Below are positions 3-9,264 of a stretch of 9,264 nt of DNA, in pieces (position 1 is the first letter of the stretch; every line of letters starts with the position of its first letter). The translations under genes were made by a program, and so were the position numbers. Source of the stretch: a virus (Duplodnaviria > Heunggongvirae > Uroviricota > Caudoviricetes). Location: the IMG/VR virus record IMGVR_UViG_2548876863_000017; one strand, 5' to 3'. The notes under the pieces were generated by a model. It did not search any database. It saw only the letters and a program-made list of their open reading frames with translations, and was not told the origin of the DNA.

Positions 3-917
3 CATCGGGCATTATCTGAACATAAAACACTATCAATAAGTTGGAGTCATTACCGATTTAATATTAATAATTCCTCAGTTACTTATATTGATATTGACTC
101 CAATGATACAGACCATATTACTATTGGTATCGACAACCAAGAACCAATAGAATTACCTGCGAACTATAAAGACAAAGAACTCGTCCGTACTATCATTAAT
201 GACAACATAGTTGAGAAGACTCATGATATCAATAACAAGGAAATGATCTTCAGCGCATTAAAAGAAATATATGATGGAGATCCTGGTTTTATCTTCGATA
301 AGATATCACACAAACTCAGACATACGGTAACGGAATTTGATGAGAGCGGGAAAAGCGAACCAACGGACTTATTTACCTGGTACGGTAAAGATAAAAAAGG
401 CGACTCTCTCGCTATTGTAATTAAAAATAAAAACGGAAATGATTACTTATCTCTCGGTTACTACGATCAGGACGACTACCACATTCAAAGAGGAATTCGT
501 ATTAATGGTGATAGTCTCACCCAATATTGTAGTGAAAACGCCAGGAGTGCTTCAGCGTGGTTTGAAAGCAGTAAAGCTATCATGGCAGAATCATTTGCAA
601 CAGGTTCCGATCATCAGGTTATAAACGAGCTCAACGGGGAAAGACTGAGAGAACCTAACGAAGTTTTTAAACGTTTAGGTCGAGCAATAAGATATAATTT
701 TCAAGTGGACGATGCAAAATTTAGACGCGATAATGTAAAAGAAATAATTTCTAATTTATTCGCTAACAAAGTTGACGTTGACCATCCTGAAAATAAATAC
801 AAAGACTTTAAGGATCTCGAAGATAACGTTGAAAAAAGACTTCAAAATCGCCAGGCGAAATATCAAAATGAAATTAATCAACTATCTGCGCCAGGTGTTA
901 ATTTTGATGATATTTAA
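3..917 (+). CDS. yfdF: 3' portion of an AT-rich hypothetical protein gene whose 5' end lies left of the window; probable yfdF homolog by synteny
   Basis: Frame 3 is open from position 3 to the TAA at 915-917. Hand translation of 3-242 gives HRALSEHKTLSISWSHYRFNINNSSVTYIDIDSNDTDHITIGIDNQEPIELPANYKDKELVRTIINDNIVEKTHDINNKEMIF with no stop, so the 224-aa track ORF (243..917) is only the tail of a longer CDS. No domain recognised. The symbol is inferred from the K-12 gene order fadL-yfdF-mlaA-yfdC-argW as I remember it, not from recognising the protein. Confidence 0.55.
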   Translation, partial: HRALSEHKTLSISWSHYRFNINNSSVTYIDIDSNDTDHITIGIDNQEPIELPANYKDKELVRTIINDNIVEKTHDINNKEMIFSALKEIYDGDPGFIFDKISHKLRHTVTEFDESGKSEPTDLFTWYGKDKKGDSLAIVIKNKNGNDYLSLGYYDQDDYHIQRGIRINGDSLTQYCSENARSASAWFESSKAIMAESFATGSDHQVINELNGERLREPNEVFKRLGRAIRYNFQVDDAKFRRDNVKEIISNLFANKVDVDHPENKYKDFKDLEDNVEKRLQNRQAKYQNEINQLSAPGVNFDDI

Positions 918-1057
918 AATTATTTTTCCAGTTTTTTGATTTTTCAACGCCTGAATATCGGAAATAGTCAGTGACGAACATCAGTATTTTTACATCATTA
1001 CGTCCGGGTCATTGTCGGTTTATCTCCTTTTACTTGTGGTAATTGAGGGATAACAAC

Positions 1058-1090
1058 AAAAAAGGTGAGTTTTGCGACTCACCTTTTTTA
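1058..1090. terminator. Bidirectional rho-independent terminator between convergent yfdF-like and mlaA genes
   Basis: Seen in sequence: A-run (1058-1063), stem GGTGAGT (1064-1070), loop TTTGCG (1071-1076), stem ACTCACC (1077-1083), T-run TTTTTTA (1084-1090). This gives a perfect 7-bp GC-containing stem with A-tract on one side and U-tract on the other, located 9 nt beyond the mlaA stop (1099-1101 on the - strand) and about 140 nt beyond the yfdF-like stop. Confidence 0.65.
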
Positions 1091-1098
1091 TTTGTTTC

Positions 1099-1854
1099 TT
1101 ATTCAGAATCAATATCTTTTAAATCATCCTGAATCGCTTGTGCGTTCGGATTTTCCTGCGGTTTGAGTTCGCCGCCATTAGCGATGAAATCATGACGCTG
1201 GAAGTACGCTTCGCGCACCATAATATAAGGATCGGACGACTGACGCAGCAGACCATCGGAATCCAACAACTGCGCACGAGTTTCTATCCCTTCAAGCGTC
1301 CATTTACCCACAGACATCGGCCAGGTCAGCCAGGAAAGAACCGGGTAAAGACCATCCGCCATATCACCACCGTCATCACGCAGCGTGAAGCTACCGTAGA
1401 ACGGTAACTGAACGTAAGGCCCATAACCCACGCCATAATGACCAAGCGTACTACCGAAGCGGTGAGGTTCAGTCCGTTGCAGTTTCGGGTTCGCCATCCC
1501 TGCAACATCAATAAAACCGCCCATCCCCAAAATGGTGTTCAGGAAAAAGCGGGTAAAGTGGACCATCCCCTGATAAGGGTCGCCCTGCAAGAAGTAGTTA
1601 ACCATCACCGCAGGTTCTTCAAGGTTGCCAGTAAAGTTGCTCAAACCGTTACGCGCCGGTTGCGGAACATAATCACGCCAGGCGACAGCGACCGGTCGAA
1701 CAATATACGGGTCTAATACATTGAAGTTGAAGTTGTACATGGTGCGGTTGAACCCTTCTAACGGGTCAGAACGCCCTTGCTGATCTGTACCGGAACTCGC
1801 ACACCCCACCAGAAGCGTAGTTCCCAGAGCAAGCGCCGACAGGCGAAGCTTCAT
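1099..1854 (-). CDS. mlaA: MlaA (VacJ), outer-membrane lipoprotein of the Mla phospholipid-transport (lipid asymmetry) pathway
   Basis: 251-aa product with N-terminal lipoprotein signal (MKLRLSALALGTTLLVGC, lipobox LVGC); I recognise the translation as the MlaA/VacJ family. Length equals E. coli MlaA (251 aa). GGAG Shine-Dalgarno lies 7-8 nt upstream of the ATG. Convergent with the yfdF-like ORF and divergent from yfdC, as in E. coli K-12. Confidence 0.9.
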   Translation of the reverse strand: MKLRLSALALGTTLLVGCASSGTDQQGRSDPLEGFNRTMYNFNFNVLDPYIVRPVAVAWRDYVPQPARNGLSNFTGNLEEPAVMVNYFLQGDPYQGMVHFTRFFLNTILGMGGFIDVAGMANPKLQRTEPHRFGSTLGHYGVGYGPYVQLPFYGSFTLRDDGGDMADGLYPVLSWLTWPMSVGKWTLEGIETRAQLLDSDGLLRQSSDPYIMVREAYFQRHDFIANGGELKPQENPNAQAIQDDLKDIDSE

Positions 1855-2147
1855 AAATGTCTCCCTGTTTTTTTATGGCTTATGCAGTTTGCCATCCATG
1901 ACGGAACGATACCGTATCCGCCTGTTTAGGTGTGGGCGATTGTAACAGCACGTCAACTGATGTCCAGACGCCCTGATTTGCTGATTTGATCATAGCCTGG
2001 TAATCGCCGCCCTGTAGGCTACTTGATTCTATAGAAACAGAAAAAGGCAAACGCAGCCTTTTCTACATTTTCAGAGTAACTCCCGTCAGTTGCGAGCAAA
2101 AAAGCCGCTACGCTTTAGCTATACGTGCTAATTCAAGAGAAGAGACC

Positions 2148-3080
2148 ATGGACAACGACAAAATTGATCAACACAGCGACGAAATTGAAGTTGAGAGCGA
2201 AGAAAAAGAGCGCGGCAAAAAAATAGAAATAGATGAAGACCGACTCCCCTCCCGGGCGATGGCAATTCATGAGCATATCCGCCAGGATGGTGAAAAAGAG
2301 CTGGAACGCGACGCAGTGGCGCTACTGTGGTCAGCCATTGCGGCGGGTCTGTCGATGGGCGCTTCGTTACTGGCAAAAGGGATATTTCAAGTCGAACTGG
2401 AAGGTGTGCCGGGCAGCTTCTTGCTGGAGAATCTCGGTTATACCTTTGGTTTTATTATCGTCATTATGGCCCGCCAGCAATTATTTACCGAAAATACCGT
2501 GACTGCGGTACTACCCGTCATGCAAAAACCGACAATGAGCAACGTCGGCTTACTTATACGGTTATGGGGCGTCGTGCTGCTGGGTAATATTCTCGGGACA
2601 GGTATTGCGGCGTGGGCATTTGAATATATGCCTATCTTCAATGAAGAAACTCGCGATGCATTTGTCAAAATCGGCATGGATGTGATGAAGAACACCCCCA
2701 GCGAGATGTTTGCCAACGCGATCATTTCCGGCTGGCTGATCGCCACTATGGTTTGGATGTTTCCTGCAGCGGGTGCGGCAAAGATTGTGGTGATTATATT
2801 GATGACCTGGCTTATTGCCCTGGGTGACACCACCCATATCGTGGTCGGTTCTGTTGAAATCCTCTATCTGGTGTTTAACGGTACGCTGCACTGGAGCGAT
2901 TTCATCTGGCCCTTCGCACTACCTACTTTAGCGGGGAACATCTGCGGCGGCACCTTTATCTTCGCGTTAATGAGTCATGCACAGATTCGTAACGACATGA
3001 GCAATAAGCGTAAAGCAGAAGCACGCCAAAAAGCAGAACGTGCGGAAAACATTAAGAAAAATTATAAAAACCCGGCATAA
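2148..3080 (+). CDS. yfdC: YfdC, inner-membrane protein of the formate/nitrite transporter (FNT) family
   Basis: 310-aa product with an acidic, charged N-terminal extension followed by multiple hydrophobic helices, consistent with an FNT-type channel. Length and position (between mlaA and argW) match E. coli yfdC as I recall it. Confidence 0.8.
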   Translation: MDNDKIDQHSDEIEVESEEKERGKKIEIDEDRLPSRAMAIHEHIRQDGEKELERDAVALLWSAIAAGLSMGASLLAKGIFQVELEGVPGSFLLENLGYTFGFIIVIMARQQLFTENTVTAVLPVMQKPTMSNVGLLIRLWGVVLLGNILGTGIAAWAFEYMPIFNEETRDAFVKIGMDVMKNTPSEMFANAIISGWLIATMVWMFPAAGAAKIVVIILMTWLIALGDTTHIVVGSVEILYLVFNGTLHWSDFIWPFALPTLAGNICGGTFIFALMSHAQIRNDMSNKRKAEARQKAERAENIKKNYKNPA

Positions 3081-3138
3081 ATGGCGAGGGTTTAAGCAAT
3101 CGAGCGGCAGCGTACTTACCCCGCACTCCATTAGCGGG

Positions 3139-3144
3139 TATACT
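3139..3144 (+). promoter_or_regulatory. Candidate -10 element (TATACT) of the argW promoter
   Basis: TATACT hexamer sits 11 nt upstream of the first base of the mature tRNA, followed by a GC-rich discriminator (CATGCCGC). No convincing -35 found (CTTACC at 3115-3120 is a poor match). Sequence-only inference. Confidence 0.3.
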
Positions 3145-3155
3145 CATGCCGCATT

Positions 3156-3230
3156 GTCCTCTTAGTTAAATGGATATAACGAGCCCCTCCTAAGGGCTAA
3201 TTGCAGGTTCGATTCCTGCAGGGGACACCA
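3156..3230 (+). tRNA. argW: tRNA-Arg, anticodon CCU (argW); probable prophage attachment site
   Basis: I folded it by hand. Acceptor stem GUCCUCU pairs with AGGGGAC (one G-U). Anticodon stem AGCCC/GGGCU has loop CUCCUAA, giving anticodon CCU. T-arm is UGCAG-GUUCGAUUC-CUGCA with the GTTCGA motif. Discriminator A and encoded CCA at 3228-3230. Total 75 nt. A P4-type integrase gene follows immediately. Confidence 0.92.
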
Positions 3231-3325
3231 TTTATCAGTTCGCTCCCATCCGTACCAGTCCGCAAAATCCCCTGAATATCAAGCCTTCCGTAGATTCACG
3301 GTTCGTCATGGTTCGCGTCAGATCG

Positions 3326-3355
3326 TTGACAGCCGCACACCATGACGGGTAAAAA
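3326..3355 (+). promoter_or_regulatory. Candidate integrase promoter: consensus -35 TTGACA with a weak -10 (TAAAAA)
   Basis: Perfect TTGACA at 3326-3331. An 18-bp spacer leads to TAAAAA at 3350-3355 (4/6 match to TATAAT), 37 nt upstream of the int ATG. The -35 is flanked by an 8-bp inverted repeat: CGTCATGG at 3304-3311 and CCATGACG at 3340-3347. Sequence-only; unvalidated. Confidence 0.3.
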
Positions 3356-3391
3356 GTGGATAAAATAATTTTACCCACCGGATTTTTACCC

Positions 3392-4546
3392 ATGCTCACC
3401 GTTAAGCAGATTGAAGCAGCAAAGCCGAAAGAAAAACCATACCGCCTTCTCGATGGTAATGGCCTGTACCTTTATGTCCCTGTATCCGGGAAAAAGGTAT
3501 GGCAGCTTCGCTATAAGATTGACGGTAAGGAGAAAATCCTGACCGTCGGAAAATACCCGCTTATGACTTTGCAGGAGGCAAGGGATAAGGCATGGACCGC
3601 GAGGAAAGACATCTCGGTTGGCATCGATCCGGTAAAGGCGAAAAAGGCTTCGTCTAACAACAATTCCTTTAGTGCGATTTACAAGGAATGGTACGAGCAC
3701 AAGAAGCAAGTATGGTCAGTAGGGTATGCGACTGAACTTGCAAAAATGTTTGATGACGACATTTTACCTATCATCGGCGGCCTTGAAATTCAGGATATTG
3801 AGCCAATGCAACTGCTGGAAGTAATCCGCAGATTTGAAGATCGCGGTGCAATGGAACGAGCCAATAAAGCCCGCAGAAGATGCGGCGAGGTTTTCCGTTA
3901 CGCTATTGTCACCGGAAGGGCTAAATATAACCCGGCACCTGACCTTGCTGACGCCATGAAGGGATACCGCAAGAAAAACTTCCCGTTTCTTCCTGCAGAC
4001 CAGATCCCGGCATTTAACAAAGCACTGGCAACATTTTCAGGAAGTATCGTATCGCTCATTGCGACCAAAGTTTTACGCTACACAGCCCTAAGAACGAAAG
4101 AGCTTCGTTCCATGCTATGGAAGAACGTCGATTTTGAAAACAGGATTATCACCATCGACGCCAGTGTGATGAAGGGTCGCAAAATTCATGTGGCTCCTAT
4201 GTCAGACCAGGTGGTTGAACTTCTCACTACGCTAAGCTCTATCACCAAACCAGTATCAGAGTTTGTTTTTGCCGGGCGCAACGATAAGAAAAAGCCAATC
4301 TGCGAGAACGCGGTATTACTTGTGATCAAACAAATCGGCTATGAAGGTCTGGAAAGCGGTCACGGATTCAGGCATGAATTCAGCACGATTATGAACGAGC
4401 ACGAATGGCCTGCTGATGCTATTGAAGTGCAACTGGCACATGCCAACGGCGGATCTGTGCGCGGGATTTACAACCATGCTCAGTATCTCGATAAGCGCAG
4501 AGAAATGATGCAGTGGTGGGCTGATTGGCTAGATTGGAAAATATGA
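3392..4546 (+). CDS. intS: P4-type tyrosine integrase (site-specific recombinase), IntS-like
   Basis: N-terminus MLTVKQIEAAKPKEKPYRLLDGNGLYLYV... is the typical P4-family arm-binding domain. The C-terminal catalytic domain has an HxxR motif (HGFRHEF) and a candidate catalytic Tyr (GIYNHAQYLDK). It lies immediately 3' of a tRNA. The track ORF starts 12 codons earlier (ATG 3356), but ATG 3392 gives the canonical family N-terminus and a 384-aa product. The intS symbol is by analogy to the K-12 argW-adjacent integrase. Confidence 0.88.
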   Translation: MLTVKQIEAAKPKEKPYRLLDGNGLYLYVPVSGKKVWQLRYKIDGKEKILTVGKYPLMTLQEARDKAWTARKDISVGIDPVKAKKASSNNNSFSAIYKEWYEHKKQVWSVGYATELAKMFDDDILPIIGGLEIQDIEPMQLLEVIRRFEDRGAMERANKARRRCGEVFRYAIVTGRAKYNPAPDLADAMKGYRKKNFPFLPADQIPAFNKALATFSGSIVSLIATKVLRYTALRTKELRSMLWKNVDFENRIITIDASVMKGRKIHVAPMSDQVVELLTTLSSITKPVSEFVFAGRNDKKKPICENAVLLVIKQIGYEGLESGHGFRHEFSTIMNEHEWPADAIEVQLAHANGGSVRGIYNHAQYLDKRREMMQWWADWLDWKI

Positions 4547-4607
4547 TAACTATGATATTATCATTATTTACAACAATAAAGTTAACATACACTTTTGAGA
4601 CTTAGAT

Positions 4608-5699
4608 GTGATTAAAAAAAACCTAGAATCCATACAATTTCTTAGAGCGGTGGCAGTTTTGTTGGTGGTTCTATTCCACTACCGTTTTGATGCAGAATCT
4701 TTGATAGCAAACTCAAAGATAATTTTCTTCAATGGATCTATTGGGGTCGACCTTTTCTTTGTTATAAGTGGATTCATAATTTACTATGTTACCGACAACA
4801 ACAAAAAAGGCATTTTCGAGTCAGCATCGTTTATATTAAAGCGAGTAATTAGGGTTTTACCGCCTTATCTTTTAATATCATTTATTTTTGTTTATTTCGG
4901 TAATAAAGATTATATAAAGTTAATACAGTCAATCTCATTCATCCCATTATCTAATAAAGAACCTCCTTTTTATGGATACCCCTCTCTTGTTGTTGGATGG
5001 TCGCTTAACTATGAGATTTACTTCTACATCCTTGCGGCCATTGGGATAATGTTTTTTGGAAAGTGCAAATGGCTTGTTATATCAACATCAATAGTGTCAT
5101 TGATAATGGTGCTGGCATTAATAAACGGAAACATATCATTATCTACCAGTGTGGACTACAACATTAATAGTAGTTACCTTTCGATGGCAACAAATAGTAT
5201 TATTTTAGATTTCACTTTAGGTGTTGCGTGTGGATACTTAGCTAAGCGTGACAATAAGGTTAGCAATACAGCTGTAATAACACTATCTATAGTTTCTATT
5301 GCTATATTTATTATGTGTCTAATGGGTATTTTTAGGTCTGAGCATGGCCCTATGTTTTGGGGGTTGTCGTCATTCTTTTTGGTGCTATCATTTATTGAGC
5401 TAGAAAAGAGAAGCATTTTATATTTTCCTAAGATTCTTATAGTAATTGGCAACATGTCATTTTCAATATATTTAGTTCACATTCCGTGTCTTGTGCTATG
5501 TTATTATTTATTCAATAACATACATCCACTTTTCAACCTAGATAATAAACCTTTACTTATATTTCTATCATCATTAATAGCAACATGCATTTCTTCGTTT
5601 TTTTATTATCATTTAGTAGAGCGATATCTTTGTGAATATTTGAGAAAGTCCATTTTCTCAGCATTATTTATATTTAAAATTCATTCAAGATCTAATTGA
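4608..5699 (+). CDS. Acyltransferase-3 (AT3) family integral membrane protein; candidate phage-encoded O-antigen O-acetyltransferase (Oac/OafA-like) for lysogenic conversion
   Basis: 363-aa polytopic hydrophobic protein. The N-terminal helix carries the AT3 signature spacing of a conserved Arg and His ([14 protein letters not shown]: R13, 10 residues, H24). Position between int and tailspike is where Sf6 carries oac and P22 carries gtrABC (from memory). Start is GTG at 4608: an in-frame TGA sits at 4596-4598 and no in-frame ATG precedes the conserved motif. Only a weak SD (GAGA). Very AT-rich. Substrate and function are inferred. Confidence 0.78.
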
Positions 5700-7640
5700 T
5701 ATATACTTCTTAGCTGTCGACATCCATGGATAGGTTGTCGACGGAAGGTTTTTAAAATGAATTATTGTTTCTCCATTTGTTCCTATTGTCACATATGAGT
5801 TATCTGCACCAAAAGAAATTGTATTAAATCTTGTCATCCTTCCTTGGTACAAAACAGAATTAGAACCATCTGTTGATATTGCTCTAAATTCATATGTACA
5901 ATCACCGTCAAAATATATAGGAGTTATCGCAAATACCTCTTCTCCAGTGTAAGTCAGAGAGTCAATGCGATAGTTGCAGCAGTACTTAACATTATCATCA
6001 ATTGGGATTTCAGCAGTAGGATAAACAAATGGTAGCTGTGTTTTTAAGTTAATTAAGACTGAATTCTTGAATGTATCAGTATTAACAAGTTTTATATTTG
6101 GAAGAGATGTTCCATATTCTGAAACAGATATTTCAGCATTAACAAGGCCATACATGACAACCATGTCATGTATGTTAAACATCCATCCACCATCACCTAT
6201 CTTTAGAAGATGTGATTTAAAGTCGCCATCTGTTTTTCCCAATACTGTTTTAACATTCTCACAGTATATATTATTGAGATTTGTACTAAAGTTCTCACCA
6301 TTAATAGTGATCGCTCTATTCATTTGCTCGAAGGCGCTTCCAGAGAATGTTACATTCTGTGTATTATTTTGAGGGTAAGATGAATTGAATGGTTCAGAAA
6401 GTAAAACACCTAGATCCCTACCTGATATTTTACCTTTGAATGCAACGTTATTTGTTGCACGACCAAGGAATACAGGATACAAGCCTTTAACAGTATCATG
6501 GTCATCAATTATGCAGACATCATATTCAGGGTAAAATCCCTGAACTGAACTTATGGCGATTGCACACCTATAAAATGACACGTCTTTTATATAACACCCT
6601 AACGTAAAGCATCTAAGATTGAAGCAATTTGAAATACCAATGAATTGTATTCCTTCAAATGAAGAGTTTCTCACAATTGCATTGGCGATACAATCCTGAT
6701 CAGAAAGTCCTGATGTATTTGATGTGATCTGGCCTGATAAAAAATACCCTGTTTCAAAAAGAGGAGTAGTTGTAGTGTCAAGATCGGAAACAATTGTTGT
6801 CTGATCACCAACGAAAGCAGTATTAGAAGAAAATATAGTTTTCTGATTTAATGTATAAACGTAATTACCCAATCCTATTTTTCTTCGCTGACCATAGCTA
6901 CCTAACCCTGCGGCTATTGCTGCTTTCTGAAATGCAGGAGAAGAATCGAAATCCGTCTTTTGCTTCGCTGGATATGCGCCAAACCTATCAACATGCAAAG
7001 GAAGTGTCGTAACCCATTTGCTACCAAGCGAATCAATAAACCATGAACCACCATCTGTTTGACCTGGAATTCCAGTTTCACCAGTTCTTCGCATGATATT
7101 TGTTGCATGTGCAGTATTAAATGCGCCTACAGAATCAGCGTGATACTTTACAATAGTCATTGTTTTAATTGCAGATGGAAATGAAGAGGATAATGCAGTT
7201 TCAAAATCTGGAACATACATTGAAGATGCCAAATCATTCATATTGGCATTACCATAGCCAACCAAATAGGCACCATAACTGCCGGCAAGATCTTGCCTTA
7301 ATTGGTCAGGGTCATACTTCAACACATTAGGAAAATAGAACTGCTTCGCACCATATGCATCATAAACAGCCATAGAATGGCCTTGCACGGTAACGAATTT
7401 GGCAATCTGTCCGTTATATACCGGGTAACCAGCAGCGTTAATGATGATTGGTTGCGATACAGGAACATGAGAGCCGTCTTCGTTCTCCACATAAACCTGA
7501 ATCTGGTTTTCAGGATTTACCGGGTCAGTGTCAATTTTACCGATATAAATTTTGCCATTGGCAACCGCTTTAAAAGAACGAGCCATAGTGAAGAGTTGCG
7601 AAGGCATGCTTACCACAACATTTGCGGTGATATCTGACAT
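5685..7640 (-). CDS. Tailspike protein: P22-family N-terminal head-binding domain fused to an unrecognised, probably beta-helical, receptor-binding/depolymerase C-terminal domain
   Basis: From the ATG at 7640 (GGAG SD 7-8 nt upstream) the product begins [113 protein letters not shown]. From memory this matches the conserved N-terminal domain of P22 gp9 and the Sf6/HK620 tailspikes. The remaining roughly 540 residues do not resemble the P22 gp9 body as I remember it. The track ORF starts 16 codons upstream (ATG 7688), which I consider an over-extension. The 3' end overlaps the acyltransferase 3' end by 15 bp. Confidence 0.85.
5714..5753 (+). terminator. Possible weak intrinsic terminator for the acyltransferase transcript, embedded in the 3' coding end of the convergent tailspike gene
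   Basis: CTGTCGAC (5714-5721) can pair with GTCGACGG (5737-5744) as an 8-bp stem with one G-U. The 15-nt loop contains the perfect palindrome ATCCATGGAT. A TTTTT run at 5749-5753 follows, but 4 nt after the stem. Starts 15 nt after the acyltransferase stop. Geometry is imperfect for a canonical terminator. Confidence 0.25.
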
Positions 7641-7761
7641 TTCATTGCTCCAGACGAATGATATGATGCAACCATGATGTGATTGCATACCGAAATGGTA
7701 CTATTGAGTATTTATCCAGTAGGTTACGATGCCATTCCACCCAACTGGTGAGGCATCAAGG
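7641..7761. promoter_or_regulatory. Divergent regulatory region between the tailspike and mnt-like genes; candidate promoters and operator
   Basis: 121-bp AT-rich spacer between divergent start codons. Inverted repeat ATGCAA (7666-7671) / TTGCAT (7683-7688) with an 11-bp spacer. Repeated ATGAT(G) motifs at 7658-7667 and 7674-7679. A CACC-N5-GGTG dyad at 7738-7750 loosely resembles the CCAC/GTGG half-sites of the P22 mnt operator as I recall it. No promoter hexamers could be assigned confidently. Confidence 0.4.
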
Positions 7762-8028
7762 ATGTACAGCAAATACGACGAGGCGCAGTTTCACTTGAGA
7801 CTTCCGCATGAACTCCACGCGAAAATTAAGCAGCGTGCGAAGATGAATAACAGATCGCTGAACTCAGAGATAATTGCAGCGATTGAAGAATCATTGGATA
7901 AACAAAGCTCTGCATCAGTTTACATTGACGATGCAGAGCGTATGGCAGAACAACAATCTGATATGGTTAAGAAAATTGTCTTTGATACGCTTAAGACCAT
8001 GTATAGCAATAATAAAAAGGAAACATAG
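7762..8028 (+). CDS. mnt: Mnt-like ribbon-helix-helix (Arc/MetJ superfamily) repressor
   Basis: 88-aa product MYSKYDEAQFHLRLPHELHAKIKQRAKMNNRSLNSEIIAAIEESL...DDAERMAEQQSDMVKKIVFDTLKTMY. It aligns by eye with P22 Mnt as I remember it, both in the N-terminal RHH DNA-binding part (FNFRMPMEVREKLKFRAEANGRSMNSELLQIVQDAL) and the C-terminal tetramerisation helix (NDAERLADEQSELVKKMVFDTLKDLY). GAGG SD at 7750-7753, 8 nt upstream of ATG 7762. The track ORF starts at ATG 7729, 11 codons upstream; I prefer 7762 from the homology. Confidence 0.82.
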   Translation: MYSKYDEAQFHLRLPHELHAKIKQRAKMNNRSLNSEIIAAIEESLDKQSSASVYIDDAERMAEQQSDMVKKIVFDTLKTMYSNNKKET

Positions 8029-8098
8029 AAATCTAGTTTCCGGCTAAAATGGCATTACCTTCATGATATCCTGTGAAAAACTAAGGAGAGTTAACCAT

Positions 8099-8584
8099 AT
8101 GAAAAAATCACTGTTAATTATCCCGCTTCTGCTGGTTGGATGCGCAAAAGTAAGTGACTATCAAGCAAGTTGCGAACAACGCTATCAAAAGCTTAGCGAT
8201 ATGGCTAATTGCCTTGATGCCAGTGTGAAGAACGACTCACGCATGGCATCAGCACCAACACCTAAGCTGTATGTCCTTGCTGCAAAGATGCTCGGGCAAG
8301 GTGTCGATGAAGGCAAGATAAGTGACGCACAGGCAAGACTTGAGCTTCAGAATCTTTATGTTCAATTACAAAGCCAAGAACAAGCCCAACAAATAGCACA
8401 AAGCCAAGCATTCCAGCAGGCTTTATTGAATTATCAGGCTGTAAACACAATGCAAGCGATCGAGCAAAAAGCGCGCCAGCCTGTTATAACTCAACCTTAC
8501 CCAACACGCGTTGACACATATACAAACTGCAATTCAGGATTTGGAAACACGGTAACATGCAACAGTAGCAGTAATATCAGGTAG
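8099..8584 (+). CDS. Predicted outer-membrane lipoprotein of unknown function, Gln-rich; moron in the slot where P22 carries sieA; candidate superinfection-exclusion or lysogenic-conversion gene
   Basis: Strong SD AAGGAG (8083-8088), then ATG 8099. The product starts MKKSLLIIPLLLVGCAK: a type II signal peptide with lipobox LVGC, and Ala at +2 after the lipidated Cys, which predicts outer-membrane sorting. The mature part has a Gln/Ala-rich probable helical segment (LQSQEQAQQIAQSQAFQQALLNYQ) and a Cys-containing C-terminus. No family recognised. The track ORF (8063) is extended upstream by 12 codons. Confidence 0.75.
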   Translation: MKKSLLIIPLLLVGCAKVSDYQASCEQRYQKLSDMANCLDASVKNDSRMASAPTPKLYVLAAKMLGQGVDEGKISDAQARLELQNLYVQLQSQEQAQQIAQSQAFQQALLNYQAVNTMQAIEQKARQPVITQPYPTRVDTYTNCNSGFGNTVTCNSSSNIR

Positions 8585-8598
8585 TTATATCTTATCTT

Positions 8599-9264
8599 TT
8601 ATTGCTGTTCTGCTGTAATTTGACTTGAAAGTATAGGGCGTATCGCATTTGCAGCATTATTTAGCGCTCTTTCATAAGCTGGCGTTCCAGTTTTAGTGTT
8701 TGCCAGACGTAAGAGAGCATTCCTTGCTGCTTTGGACTCATACAAGCGCATCATTGCACCAAAACCAGCCTCAAGCCCCATTGATACGCCAAGGGTCGCA
8801 GTTGCGCCAATCGTCCTTATCCTGTTGGCTTGCGATTGCCCCGTCTGAGTTACTACATTTGCGGTGTCTGACCTTGCTGTTTGCTGTAGAACTTCATGAA
8901 GAGCATCAAGCTCTTTTATGTGCTTTCCAGAAAAAATAGTGTTGTAAATTTCACCGCCTGACTGAGATTTCAGCTTATTAACTTCAGTGATGAACTTGGC
9001 TGGAGAGTCCCCGGCCTTTTCCGCTATTTTGCTGACGTAAGCTGCACGCATAGCATCTTTCCCCTTATCATCCAGTGCGCTCCAGATTCGTTTCACGTCA
9101 GATGGTTTTCTGCTTAATACAACGGTATTTATAAGTTCAGGACTGGCTTCACTGCTTGCCTTGTTGAGCTTGTTGGCAATGTTTTTATTAAGCACCTTAT
9201 TATAAACGTTGTAAGCGTACAGCGAGGGCCGTATTGACGGGGATGTGTTATTCAGCTGGCAGTG
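8599..9264 (-). CDS. 3' portion of a phage late gene (5' end beyond the right edge); possibly an ejection/injection protein (P22 gp16-like) by synteny
   Basis: I translated the - strand frame from 9264 down to the track start (GTG at 9195) and found no stop (...[33 protein letters not shown]...), so the track ORF start is an artefact of the window edge. Stop is at 8599-8601. Same orientation as the tailspike and convergent with the lipoprotein. The functional call is from position only; I do not recognise the sequence. Confidence 0.5.

Follow-up and report, generated by a model that had tools for sequence, protein, structure and literature searches.

A prophage attL of the IntS/TorI type, very probably fused to the integrase gene's own promoter, at the argW tRNA gene of an Escherichia coli contig

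The closest described system to the locus considered here is the left attachment site (attL) of the KplE1 (CPS-53) prophage of Escherichia coli K-12, at which the tRNA gene argW is followed by the integrase gene intS (Panis et al., 2007; Panis et al., 2010). Our subject is the junction between argW and an integrase gene (int) in a 9264-nt stretch of DNA, IMG/VR record IMGVR_UViG_2548876863_000017 (hereafter the window, whose numbering is used throughout), which is an E. coli chromosomal contig containing the left junction of a prophage. The segment from 3216 to 3392 is very probably the attL of a prophage with an IntS/TorI module, fused to the promoter of the integrase gene itself. It has the same tRNA, the same core, the same five pentamers, the same -35 and -10 hexamers and the same four arm-type copies as the K-12 site. 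The two loci differ downstream of the integrase gene, where K-12 has the gtr-like genes yfdGHI and the window encodes an Acyl_transf_3 protein and a tailspike of P22 type.

In the Lederbergvirus phages HK620, Sf6 and CUS-3, the core and repeats annotated for attP, like the int promoter, map to the corresponding positions, and these phages share the gene order of the window, with int followed by an O-antigen or capsule modification gene and a convergent tailspike gene. These are intact infectious phages, whereas the prophage in the window is disrupted by insertion sequences (IS), and its cargo also differs, with an acyltransferase that is 24% identical to Sf6 Oac and a tailspike whose receptor-binding part has no close phage match. 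A more distant relative is the satellite phage P4, which integrates at the leuX tRNA gene. The attP-int region of P4 encodes an integrase of the same family with the same domains, and ~150 nt separate its core from the int gene downstream; its P arm has two direct repeats, and its P' arm two direct repeats and an inverted one that overlaps the int ATG. The P4 int gene is negatively regulated by Int and by the excisionase, as would be the case here, but its arm motif is different (GGGGGCAT) and its excisionase, Vis, has been proposed to act on the mRNA and not at the -35. Phage lambda shares the general scheme of a heterobivalent tyrosine integrase that binds core and arm sites, with an excisionase that sets directionality. 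The lambda int gene is read towards attP from PI and PL, coupled to xis and controlled by sib; unlike it, int in the window points away from the core, has its predicted promoter within attL, is uncoupled from the excisionase gene and would be autoregulated.

Several lines of evidence locate the boundary of the prophage. In megablast comparisons with phage records, homology begins exactly at the core, at 3216, and continues through int at 96-97% nucleotide identity to HK620, Sf6, CUS-3, HK633, IME10, Kapi1 and others. The core sequence, CTGCAGGGGACACCAT, is identical to the attP core annotated in HK620 and Sf6, whose 16-bp features map precisely onto 3216-3231; there is one copy in the window, one in each phage attP and two in K-12, where the cryptic prophage KplE1 occupies argW and has intS and torI at its opposite ends. 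The duplicated core of KplE1 is likewise 16 nt long, according to the description of that element in PMC2951348. The argW gene is intact, with an encoded CCA, and its final 15 nt are the prophage copy of the core. Beyond the core, the int promoter (PintS in K-12, pX in Sf6 and 'prophage excision' in HK620) maps to 3325-3375 from the two phage annotations, and the HK620 'attP' repeat regions map to 3346-3367 and 3367-3392. The original prediction had read this junction as the attL of a P22/Sf6-like prophage with its att core inside the tRNA gene's 3' end, had placed the K-12 element at the same tRNA and had named Sf6 as another user of argW, and it is right on all of these points.

The int ATG lies 162 nt past the last base of the tRNA, so that the spacer between the two measures 161 nt, and this spacer differs from the K-12 attL at five positions. 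All five fall outside the mapped pentamers, hexamers and arm copies; they include A3339 and G3300, the latter private to the window, with A in K-12, HK620, Sf6 and CUS-3. A 160-nt P' arm of at least 95% identity is present in 1898 of 5426 complete E. coli genomes (~35%). The module is very probably the same as that of K-12 KplE1/CPS-53, HK620, Sf6 and CUS-3, and its core, junction, promoter, arm and excisionase sites and regulatory logic have all been published; the identification is correct and ordinary. Its value is mostly that of annotation, in that it fixes the exact left boundary of the prophage and explains the intergenic repeats as published IntS/TorI sites, and it raises no new question. 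The coordinates of the individual features are collected in Table 1.

The individual sites were reportedly mapped for the first time in a 2007 paper by Panis and colleagues in the Journal of Biological Chemistry. We transferred K-12 positions to the window by equating the intS ATG at 2464567 with position 3392; the cloned K-12 fragment runs from -223 to +64, which places the ATG at 2464567 and makes its coordinates mappable. The K-12 version of this DNA was later dissected by Panis et al. (PLoS Genet 2010; PMC2951348), and binding, transcription start and repression are all taken from those experiments. In the sections of that paper on the attL-intS region, TorI has five sites in two blocks, with the motifs GTTCG, GATCG and GTCCG each mutated to CAAGC, and PintS consists of the hexamers TTGACA and 'TAaAAa', with primer-extension starts at 2464536 and 2464537, a T and an A that lie 31 and 30 nt before the ATG. 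The same sections report that PintS is repressed ~5-fold by IntS and likewise by TorI, and that mutation of I4 or I5 abolishes repression by TorI but not by IntS. All five pentamers in the window are identical to those of K-12 and lie on the plus strand, with I3, I4 and I5 spaced 10 bp apart and ending at the -35. The proposal of an autoregulated int promoter, with TTGACA as its -35, matches the K-12 attL as described in PMC2951348.

The proposal that the two TTTTACCCA repeats are integrase arm-type sites matches the same source, in which the P' arm-type sites of K-12 IntS share TAAA and the first of them, P'1, overlaps the -10. Between 3347 and 3392 the GGGTAAAA type is represented by two forward copies and two inverted ones, four in all. 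Of the four exact matches to the 8-mer GGGTAAAA in the window, three are found within 45 bp here. A repeat search recovered the corresponding inverted matches, pairing GGGTAAAA(A) at 3347-3355 with both TTTTACCC copies, and GTGGATAAAAT with ATTTTACCCAC. The P arm, which in a lysogen is located at attR, adds two further copies, TGGGTAAAAT and CGGGTAAAAT. The two forward copies in the spacer (GGGTAAAAA and GGATAAAAT) had gone unremarked in the original prediction, as had the pentamers I1, I2 and I5. A fifth copy was considered and set aside: the HK620 record marks an 'attP repeat' inside int, corresponding to 3760-3770 of the window (AGGTAAAA, one mismatch), and this is probably a chance match, since about eight one-mismatch matches are expected by chance in the window.

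The integrase gene points away from the core and is co-oriented with the tRNA gene, and its product is identical to K-12 IntS at 381 of 384 residues (99%). The protein contains the Pfam domains PF13356 (Arm-DNA-bind_3, DUF4102), PF22022 (Phage_int_M) and PF00589 (Phage_integrase), and it aligns over its full length with P4 Int at 35% identity (E = 6e-77), with the catalytic motifs in register and residues R234, H324, R327, H350 and Y360 all present. On domains and catalytic residues it is evidently a P4-like tyrosine integrase, in agreement with the P4-type integrase that had been predicted 162 nt after the tRNA; an NCBIfam integrase model also matched, below its cutoff (233 versus 434 bits). 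The open reading frame as called is longer, from 3356 to 4546. The GTG at 3356 was rejected as the start: transcription is mapped to begin downstream of it, and the homologues all start with MLTVKQ at 3392. At the other end of the gene, homology to HK620, Sf6 and K-12 stops at ~4534-4546, within the last int codons, with the limit for HK620 and Sf6 at ~4534-4541; the protein ends in WKI here and in EKV plus one more residue in K-12, so that the last three residues differ from IntS and the protein is one residue shorter. The 3' end of int appears to be a mosaic boundary between the conserved integration module and variable cargo.

Taken together with the K-12 experiments, these features suggest how the junction most likely arose and works. 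IntS very probably exchanged strands within the 16-bp core common to the phage attP and the 3' end of argW, which rebuilt the tRNA gene and placed the phage P' arm behind it. As the promoter sits inside the recombination site, IntS bound to its arm sites would repress its own transcription; TorI at I4 and I5 would block the -35; and the integrase would be held at a low steady level, with excision triggered by TorI made from the opposite end of the prophage.

Several points weigh against this reading. The function of this particular copy is carried over from K-12 by near-identity, and it is from our reading of the sequence that the P' sites were counted and delimited, beyond the naming of P'1 and the shared 'TAAA' in the relevant part of PMC2951348. 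PintS was absent from the output of a consensus promoter and terminator scan, which demands a final T that the -10 of PintS, TAAAAA, does not have; the scan reported four other matches, at chance level. Both attR and torI lie outside the window, and the strain from which the window derives is not that of the closest complete genome, since the positions of the IS differ. Finally, the prophage is not an inducible phage, because it is interrupted by IS elements; although it is P22-like (Lederbergvirus) by its tailspike head-binding domain, Arc/Mnt immI region and DNA-transfer genes, it is not a complete inducible genome, with the DNA-transfer gene cut by an IS in the window and pseudogenes in the closest genome.

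That genome, NZ_AP042519.1, is the best match found and is 100% identical to the window over 55-9210, barring an IS1 in its tailspike gene. NZ_AP042519.1 has a second core, that of attR, located 43,884 bp downstream from that of attL. Before it come a torI gene 100% identical to that of K-12 and the P-arm sites, which show one A-to-G change, and after it the dsdC flank. The module presumably has only one functional IHF site, on attR. An empty site rebuilt from the left flank, the core and the right flank of attR has 100% identical counterparts in ATCC 8739 and other genomes, so the insertion was precise, and most of this rebuilt attB is held by 912 of 5426 E. coli genomes. The element in NZ_AP042519.1 also contains at least nine IS copies, of the IS3, IS21, IS66 and IS1 families, as well as pseudogenes and a segment that is inverted. 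Its annotation includes P22 capsid, scaffold and portal genes; those for capsid and portal, like the tailspike and lysis genes, are pseudogenes with IS elements at their flanks. The original prediction had proposed a search for a direct repeat of the tRNA 3' end and had opposed a degraded remnant to a bounded element: the repeat was found in NZ_AP042519.1, 43.9 kb downstream, but the opposition does not hold, as the element appears to be bounded as well as degraded.

Table 1. Positions of the junction elements and of the genes in the 9264-nt window.
Feature	Coordinates	Strand	Remarks
yfdF, truncated	left end of window		cut by IS1 end
mlaA	1099-1854	-	
yfdC	2148-3080		
argW, tRNA-Arg(CCT)	3156-3230	+	ARAGORN; Rfam tRNA, 63.4 bits
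attL core CTGCAGGGGACACCAT, 16 bp, predicted strand-exchange site	3216-3231	+	last 15 nt of argW plus 1
TorI block I1;2, 28 nt	3234-3261		K-12 2464409-2464436, as given in PMC2951348
TorI (excisionase/recombination directionality factor) site I1, GTTCG	3238-3242	+	identical to K-12
TorI site I2, GTCCG	3258-3262	+	20 bp from I1; identical to K-12
TorI block I3;4;5	3297-3324		mapped from the limits given in PMC2951348
TorI site I3, GTTCG	3301-3305	+	inside the first GGTTCG of the original prediction
TorI site I4, GTTCG	3311-3315	+	inside the second GGTTCG of the original prediction
TorI site I5, GATCG	3321-3325	+	abuts the -35
Inverted repeat CGTCATGG / CCATGACG	3304-3311 / 3340-3347		brackets I4, I5 and the -35
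-35, TTGACA	3326-3331	+	HK620 and Sf6 annotations; promoter section of PMC2951348
-10, TAAAAA	3350-3355	+	18 nt after the -35, within arm site P'1; identical to K-12
Arm-type site P'1, GGGTAAAAA	3347-3355	+	overlaps the -10
Arm-type copy GGATAAAAT, one mismatch	3358-3366	+	within the HK620 'attP' repeat region mapped to 3346-3367
int transcription starts (predicted)	3361 (T), 3362 (A)	+	mapped by identity from K-12
Arm-type copy TGGGTAAAA	3369-3377	-	first TTTTACCCA of the original prediction
Arm-type copy TGGGTAAAA	3384-3392	-	second TTTTACCCA of the original prediction; overlaps the A of the int ATG
int	3392-4546	+	384 aa, IntS-type (P4-like) tyrosine integrase
Acyl_transf_3 gene	4608-5699		after int
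Tailspike gene, P22 head-binding domain	5685-7688	-	667 aa; PF09008, 223 bits
Arc/Mnt protein gene	7729-8028		Arc and Mnt domains
Hypothetical open reading frame	between the Arc/Mnt and DNA-transfer protein genes		
DNA-transfer (ejection) protein gene, truncated	8599-9195	-	

To weigh the repeats in the spacer against chance, we shuffled 3231-3394 2000 times with dinucleotide composition preserved. Direct repeats of 9 nt or longer arose in 1.7% of the shuffles, inverted repeats of 8 nt or longer in 4.3% and TTGACA in 3.2%, so that each of the features initially singled out is, taken alone, only marginal. By comparison, at least three exact GGGTAAAA/TTTTACCC copies were seen in 0 of the 2000 shuffles, as were three G[AT]TCG at exact 10-bp phasing. 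All the positions given in the original prediction are right on rereading the sequence, and the repeat pairs were recovered independently, among them the GGTTCG pair at 3300-3305 and 3310-3315, where the search returned a tandem 10-nt unit (TCACGGTTCG/TCATGGTTCG). Part of the interpretation fares less well. Phased direct repeats within an attL might be taken for integrase arm-type sites, which is one of the roles that had been suggested for GGTTCG, but the K-12 pentamers at this place are TorI sites by footprint and mutagenesis in the corresponding sections of PMC2951348, and across genera the five pentamers co-vary independently of the arm motif (for example in loci L022 and L032), so that an arm-site role for GGTTCG is very hard to credit next to its assignment to I3 and I4. 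The 8-bp inverted repeat, listed there among the same candidates, is not a recognised element. All eight of its pairs form in the window, K-12 and Sf6, and its symmetry is centred where I5 meets the -35. It could be the operator of a dimeric regulator, or fold into a hairpin when transcription from argW or the phage pI promoter continues through attL or attP. Apart from its scarcity among the shuffles, such a role would fit the behaviour of 14 relatives from outside E. coli, in which 61% of the cells are Watson-Crick pairs as against 25% +/- 10% for 1273 other registers, only one of which matches it; pair counts reach 76% paired versus 34-51% when the arms are slid, covariation is 0.33 versus 0.21 in shuffles (a value reached by 0 of 500), and single-strand folding z-scores are about -2. 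These pairing counts are inflated, however, by the relatedness of the sequences and by the use of one of them to define the structure, and 3 of the 8 pairs use bases already conserved in TorI sites I3 and I4 and in CGGGTAAAA. Uncompensated single changes break the repeat in HK620, L010 and CUS-3 (7/8 pairs each), and only 2-6 of 8 pairs form elsewhere. RNAalifold does not predict the helix, which moreover is missing from the prophage int mRNA since transcription is mapped to start downstream of its left arm, and the parts of the literature on this module that describe the attL report no role for it. A functional inverted repeat is accordingly improbable; the repeat is unproven as an element, its coordinates apart, and looks to be largely a by-product of abutting sites.

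A different question is whether the junction is a dead fossil, in which the sites are intact and excision was lost as IS rearrangements removed attR and torI or separated them from attL. The window itself is bounded by IS ends on both sides, with an IS1 end (1-54) in yfdF and the end of an IS66-family ISEc8-type element (9211-9264) interrupting the P22-like DNA-transfer protein gene at 9210, and in NZ_AP042519.1 the IS load described above is accompanied by replication and nin genes inverted relative to the late genes. Against this stand the full-length int, whose product is 99% identical to the functional IntS, and the intact attL sites, and NZ_AP042519.1 retains the attR core, the P-arm sites and an identical torI. 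The K-12 KplE1 element, a 10-kb remnant, still excises, as stated in the account of it in PMC2951348. We consider the fossil unlikely, though less so than a functional inverted repeat, and retain the view of 3216-3392 as an attL with IntS/TorI sites and the int promoter.

The same architecture is found well beyond E. coli. A scan of species-representative genomes for the integrase gave 77 loci, and we aligned 24 enterobacterial ones with the window, K-12, HK620 and Klebsiella phage Chronis (n = 28). The 24 loci, from genera that include Citrobacter, Pantoea, Edwardsiella, Xenorhabdus, Tatumella and Serratia, encode Int proteins 58-99% identical to that of the window, with int located 3' of a tRNA-Arg(CCT) and ~160 nt away from it in nearly all. 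The TTGAC of the -35 is invariant (28/28), and Chronis, at 77% nucleotide identity, retains every element. Most of the aligned sequences have arm copies of the GGGTAAA type, but in L019, L027-L030 and L034 the motif is swapped in concert from GGGTAAAA to GGGCATAT / TTATGCCCA, a change that affects the forward copies and the inverted copy overlapping the ATG, with the other inverted copy degenerate in most of these loci. The phased pentamers also change jointly, from GTTCG to GTAAAC, GTTACC or CGAAC types, while keeping their positions, and in L022 and L032 the pentamers are altered and GGGTAAAA is kept. Such concerted swaps around a fixed -35 are expected if the proteins of the element read the repeats and the host RNA polymerase reads the -35. 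The swaps may be regarded as naturally occurring variants, differing in specificity, of a single att architecture, and this series is perhaps uncatalogued.

Some smaller observations arise from this alignment. The alternative motif GGGCATAT / TTATGCCCA (at ~1340-1500 in each of the six loci) is close to the P4 motif mentioned above. The first arm site doubles as the -10 in both motif groups, in the form of TAAAAA or CATATT. In Xenorhabdus hominickii (L024, ~1300-1400), a tandem array of the 8-nt unit CCCTTAAAT replaces the upstream TorI-type block.

A second repeat derived from the tRNA is found at the far end of the element. The 16-nt T-arm sequence of argW, TTGCAGGTTCGATTCC (3201-3216 in the window), recurs exactly just upstream of torI/hkaC/gene 18 in HK620, Sf6, K-12 and the closest genome (L001 1192-1207; L002 2692-2707; L005 17131-17146; L006 11276-11291). 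Because of this repeat, the element can be said to carry the last 31 nt of argW, divided by ~293 bp in which the P arm and torI are located. In the CUS-3 record TTGCAGGTTCGATTCC bears the label 'attL core', and the HK620 record places a cII-dependent integration promoter there. As TTGCAGGTTCGATTCC includes GTTCG, it is a candidate TorI site at the promoter of torI itself.

The rearrangements within NZ_AP042519.1 can be followed in some detail. Between 2867555 and 2911454 (L004, L005) the late genes are read leftward, and the replication, nin and lysis genes are read rightward between IS3-family copies, an opposed orientation that points to an IS-mediated inversion inside the prophage. The DNA-transfer gene extends 13 nt further in this genome than in the window and is cut by an IS629-like element, and the different cut points indicate independent IS insertions only a few bases apart.

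An Rfam scan of 2900-4800 at a permissive threshold returned the tRNA only, and NCBIfam gave no match for the acyltransferase, the tailspike or the two open reading frames downstream. The acyltransferase and the receptor-binding part of the tailspike (~5685-7290) had no megablast match in 50,697 phage records, and the pair is probably a serotype-conversion and host-range cassette unseen in deposited phages. The two reading frames are convergent and overlap by 15 nt. Beyond them, the 99-aa reading frame at 7729-8028 matches Arc over residues 18-60 and Mnt over residues 68-92 (Pfam), and RefSeq has a shorter Arc-family protein of 88 aa at the equivalent position.

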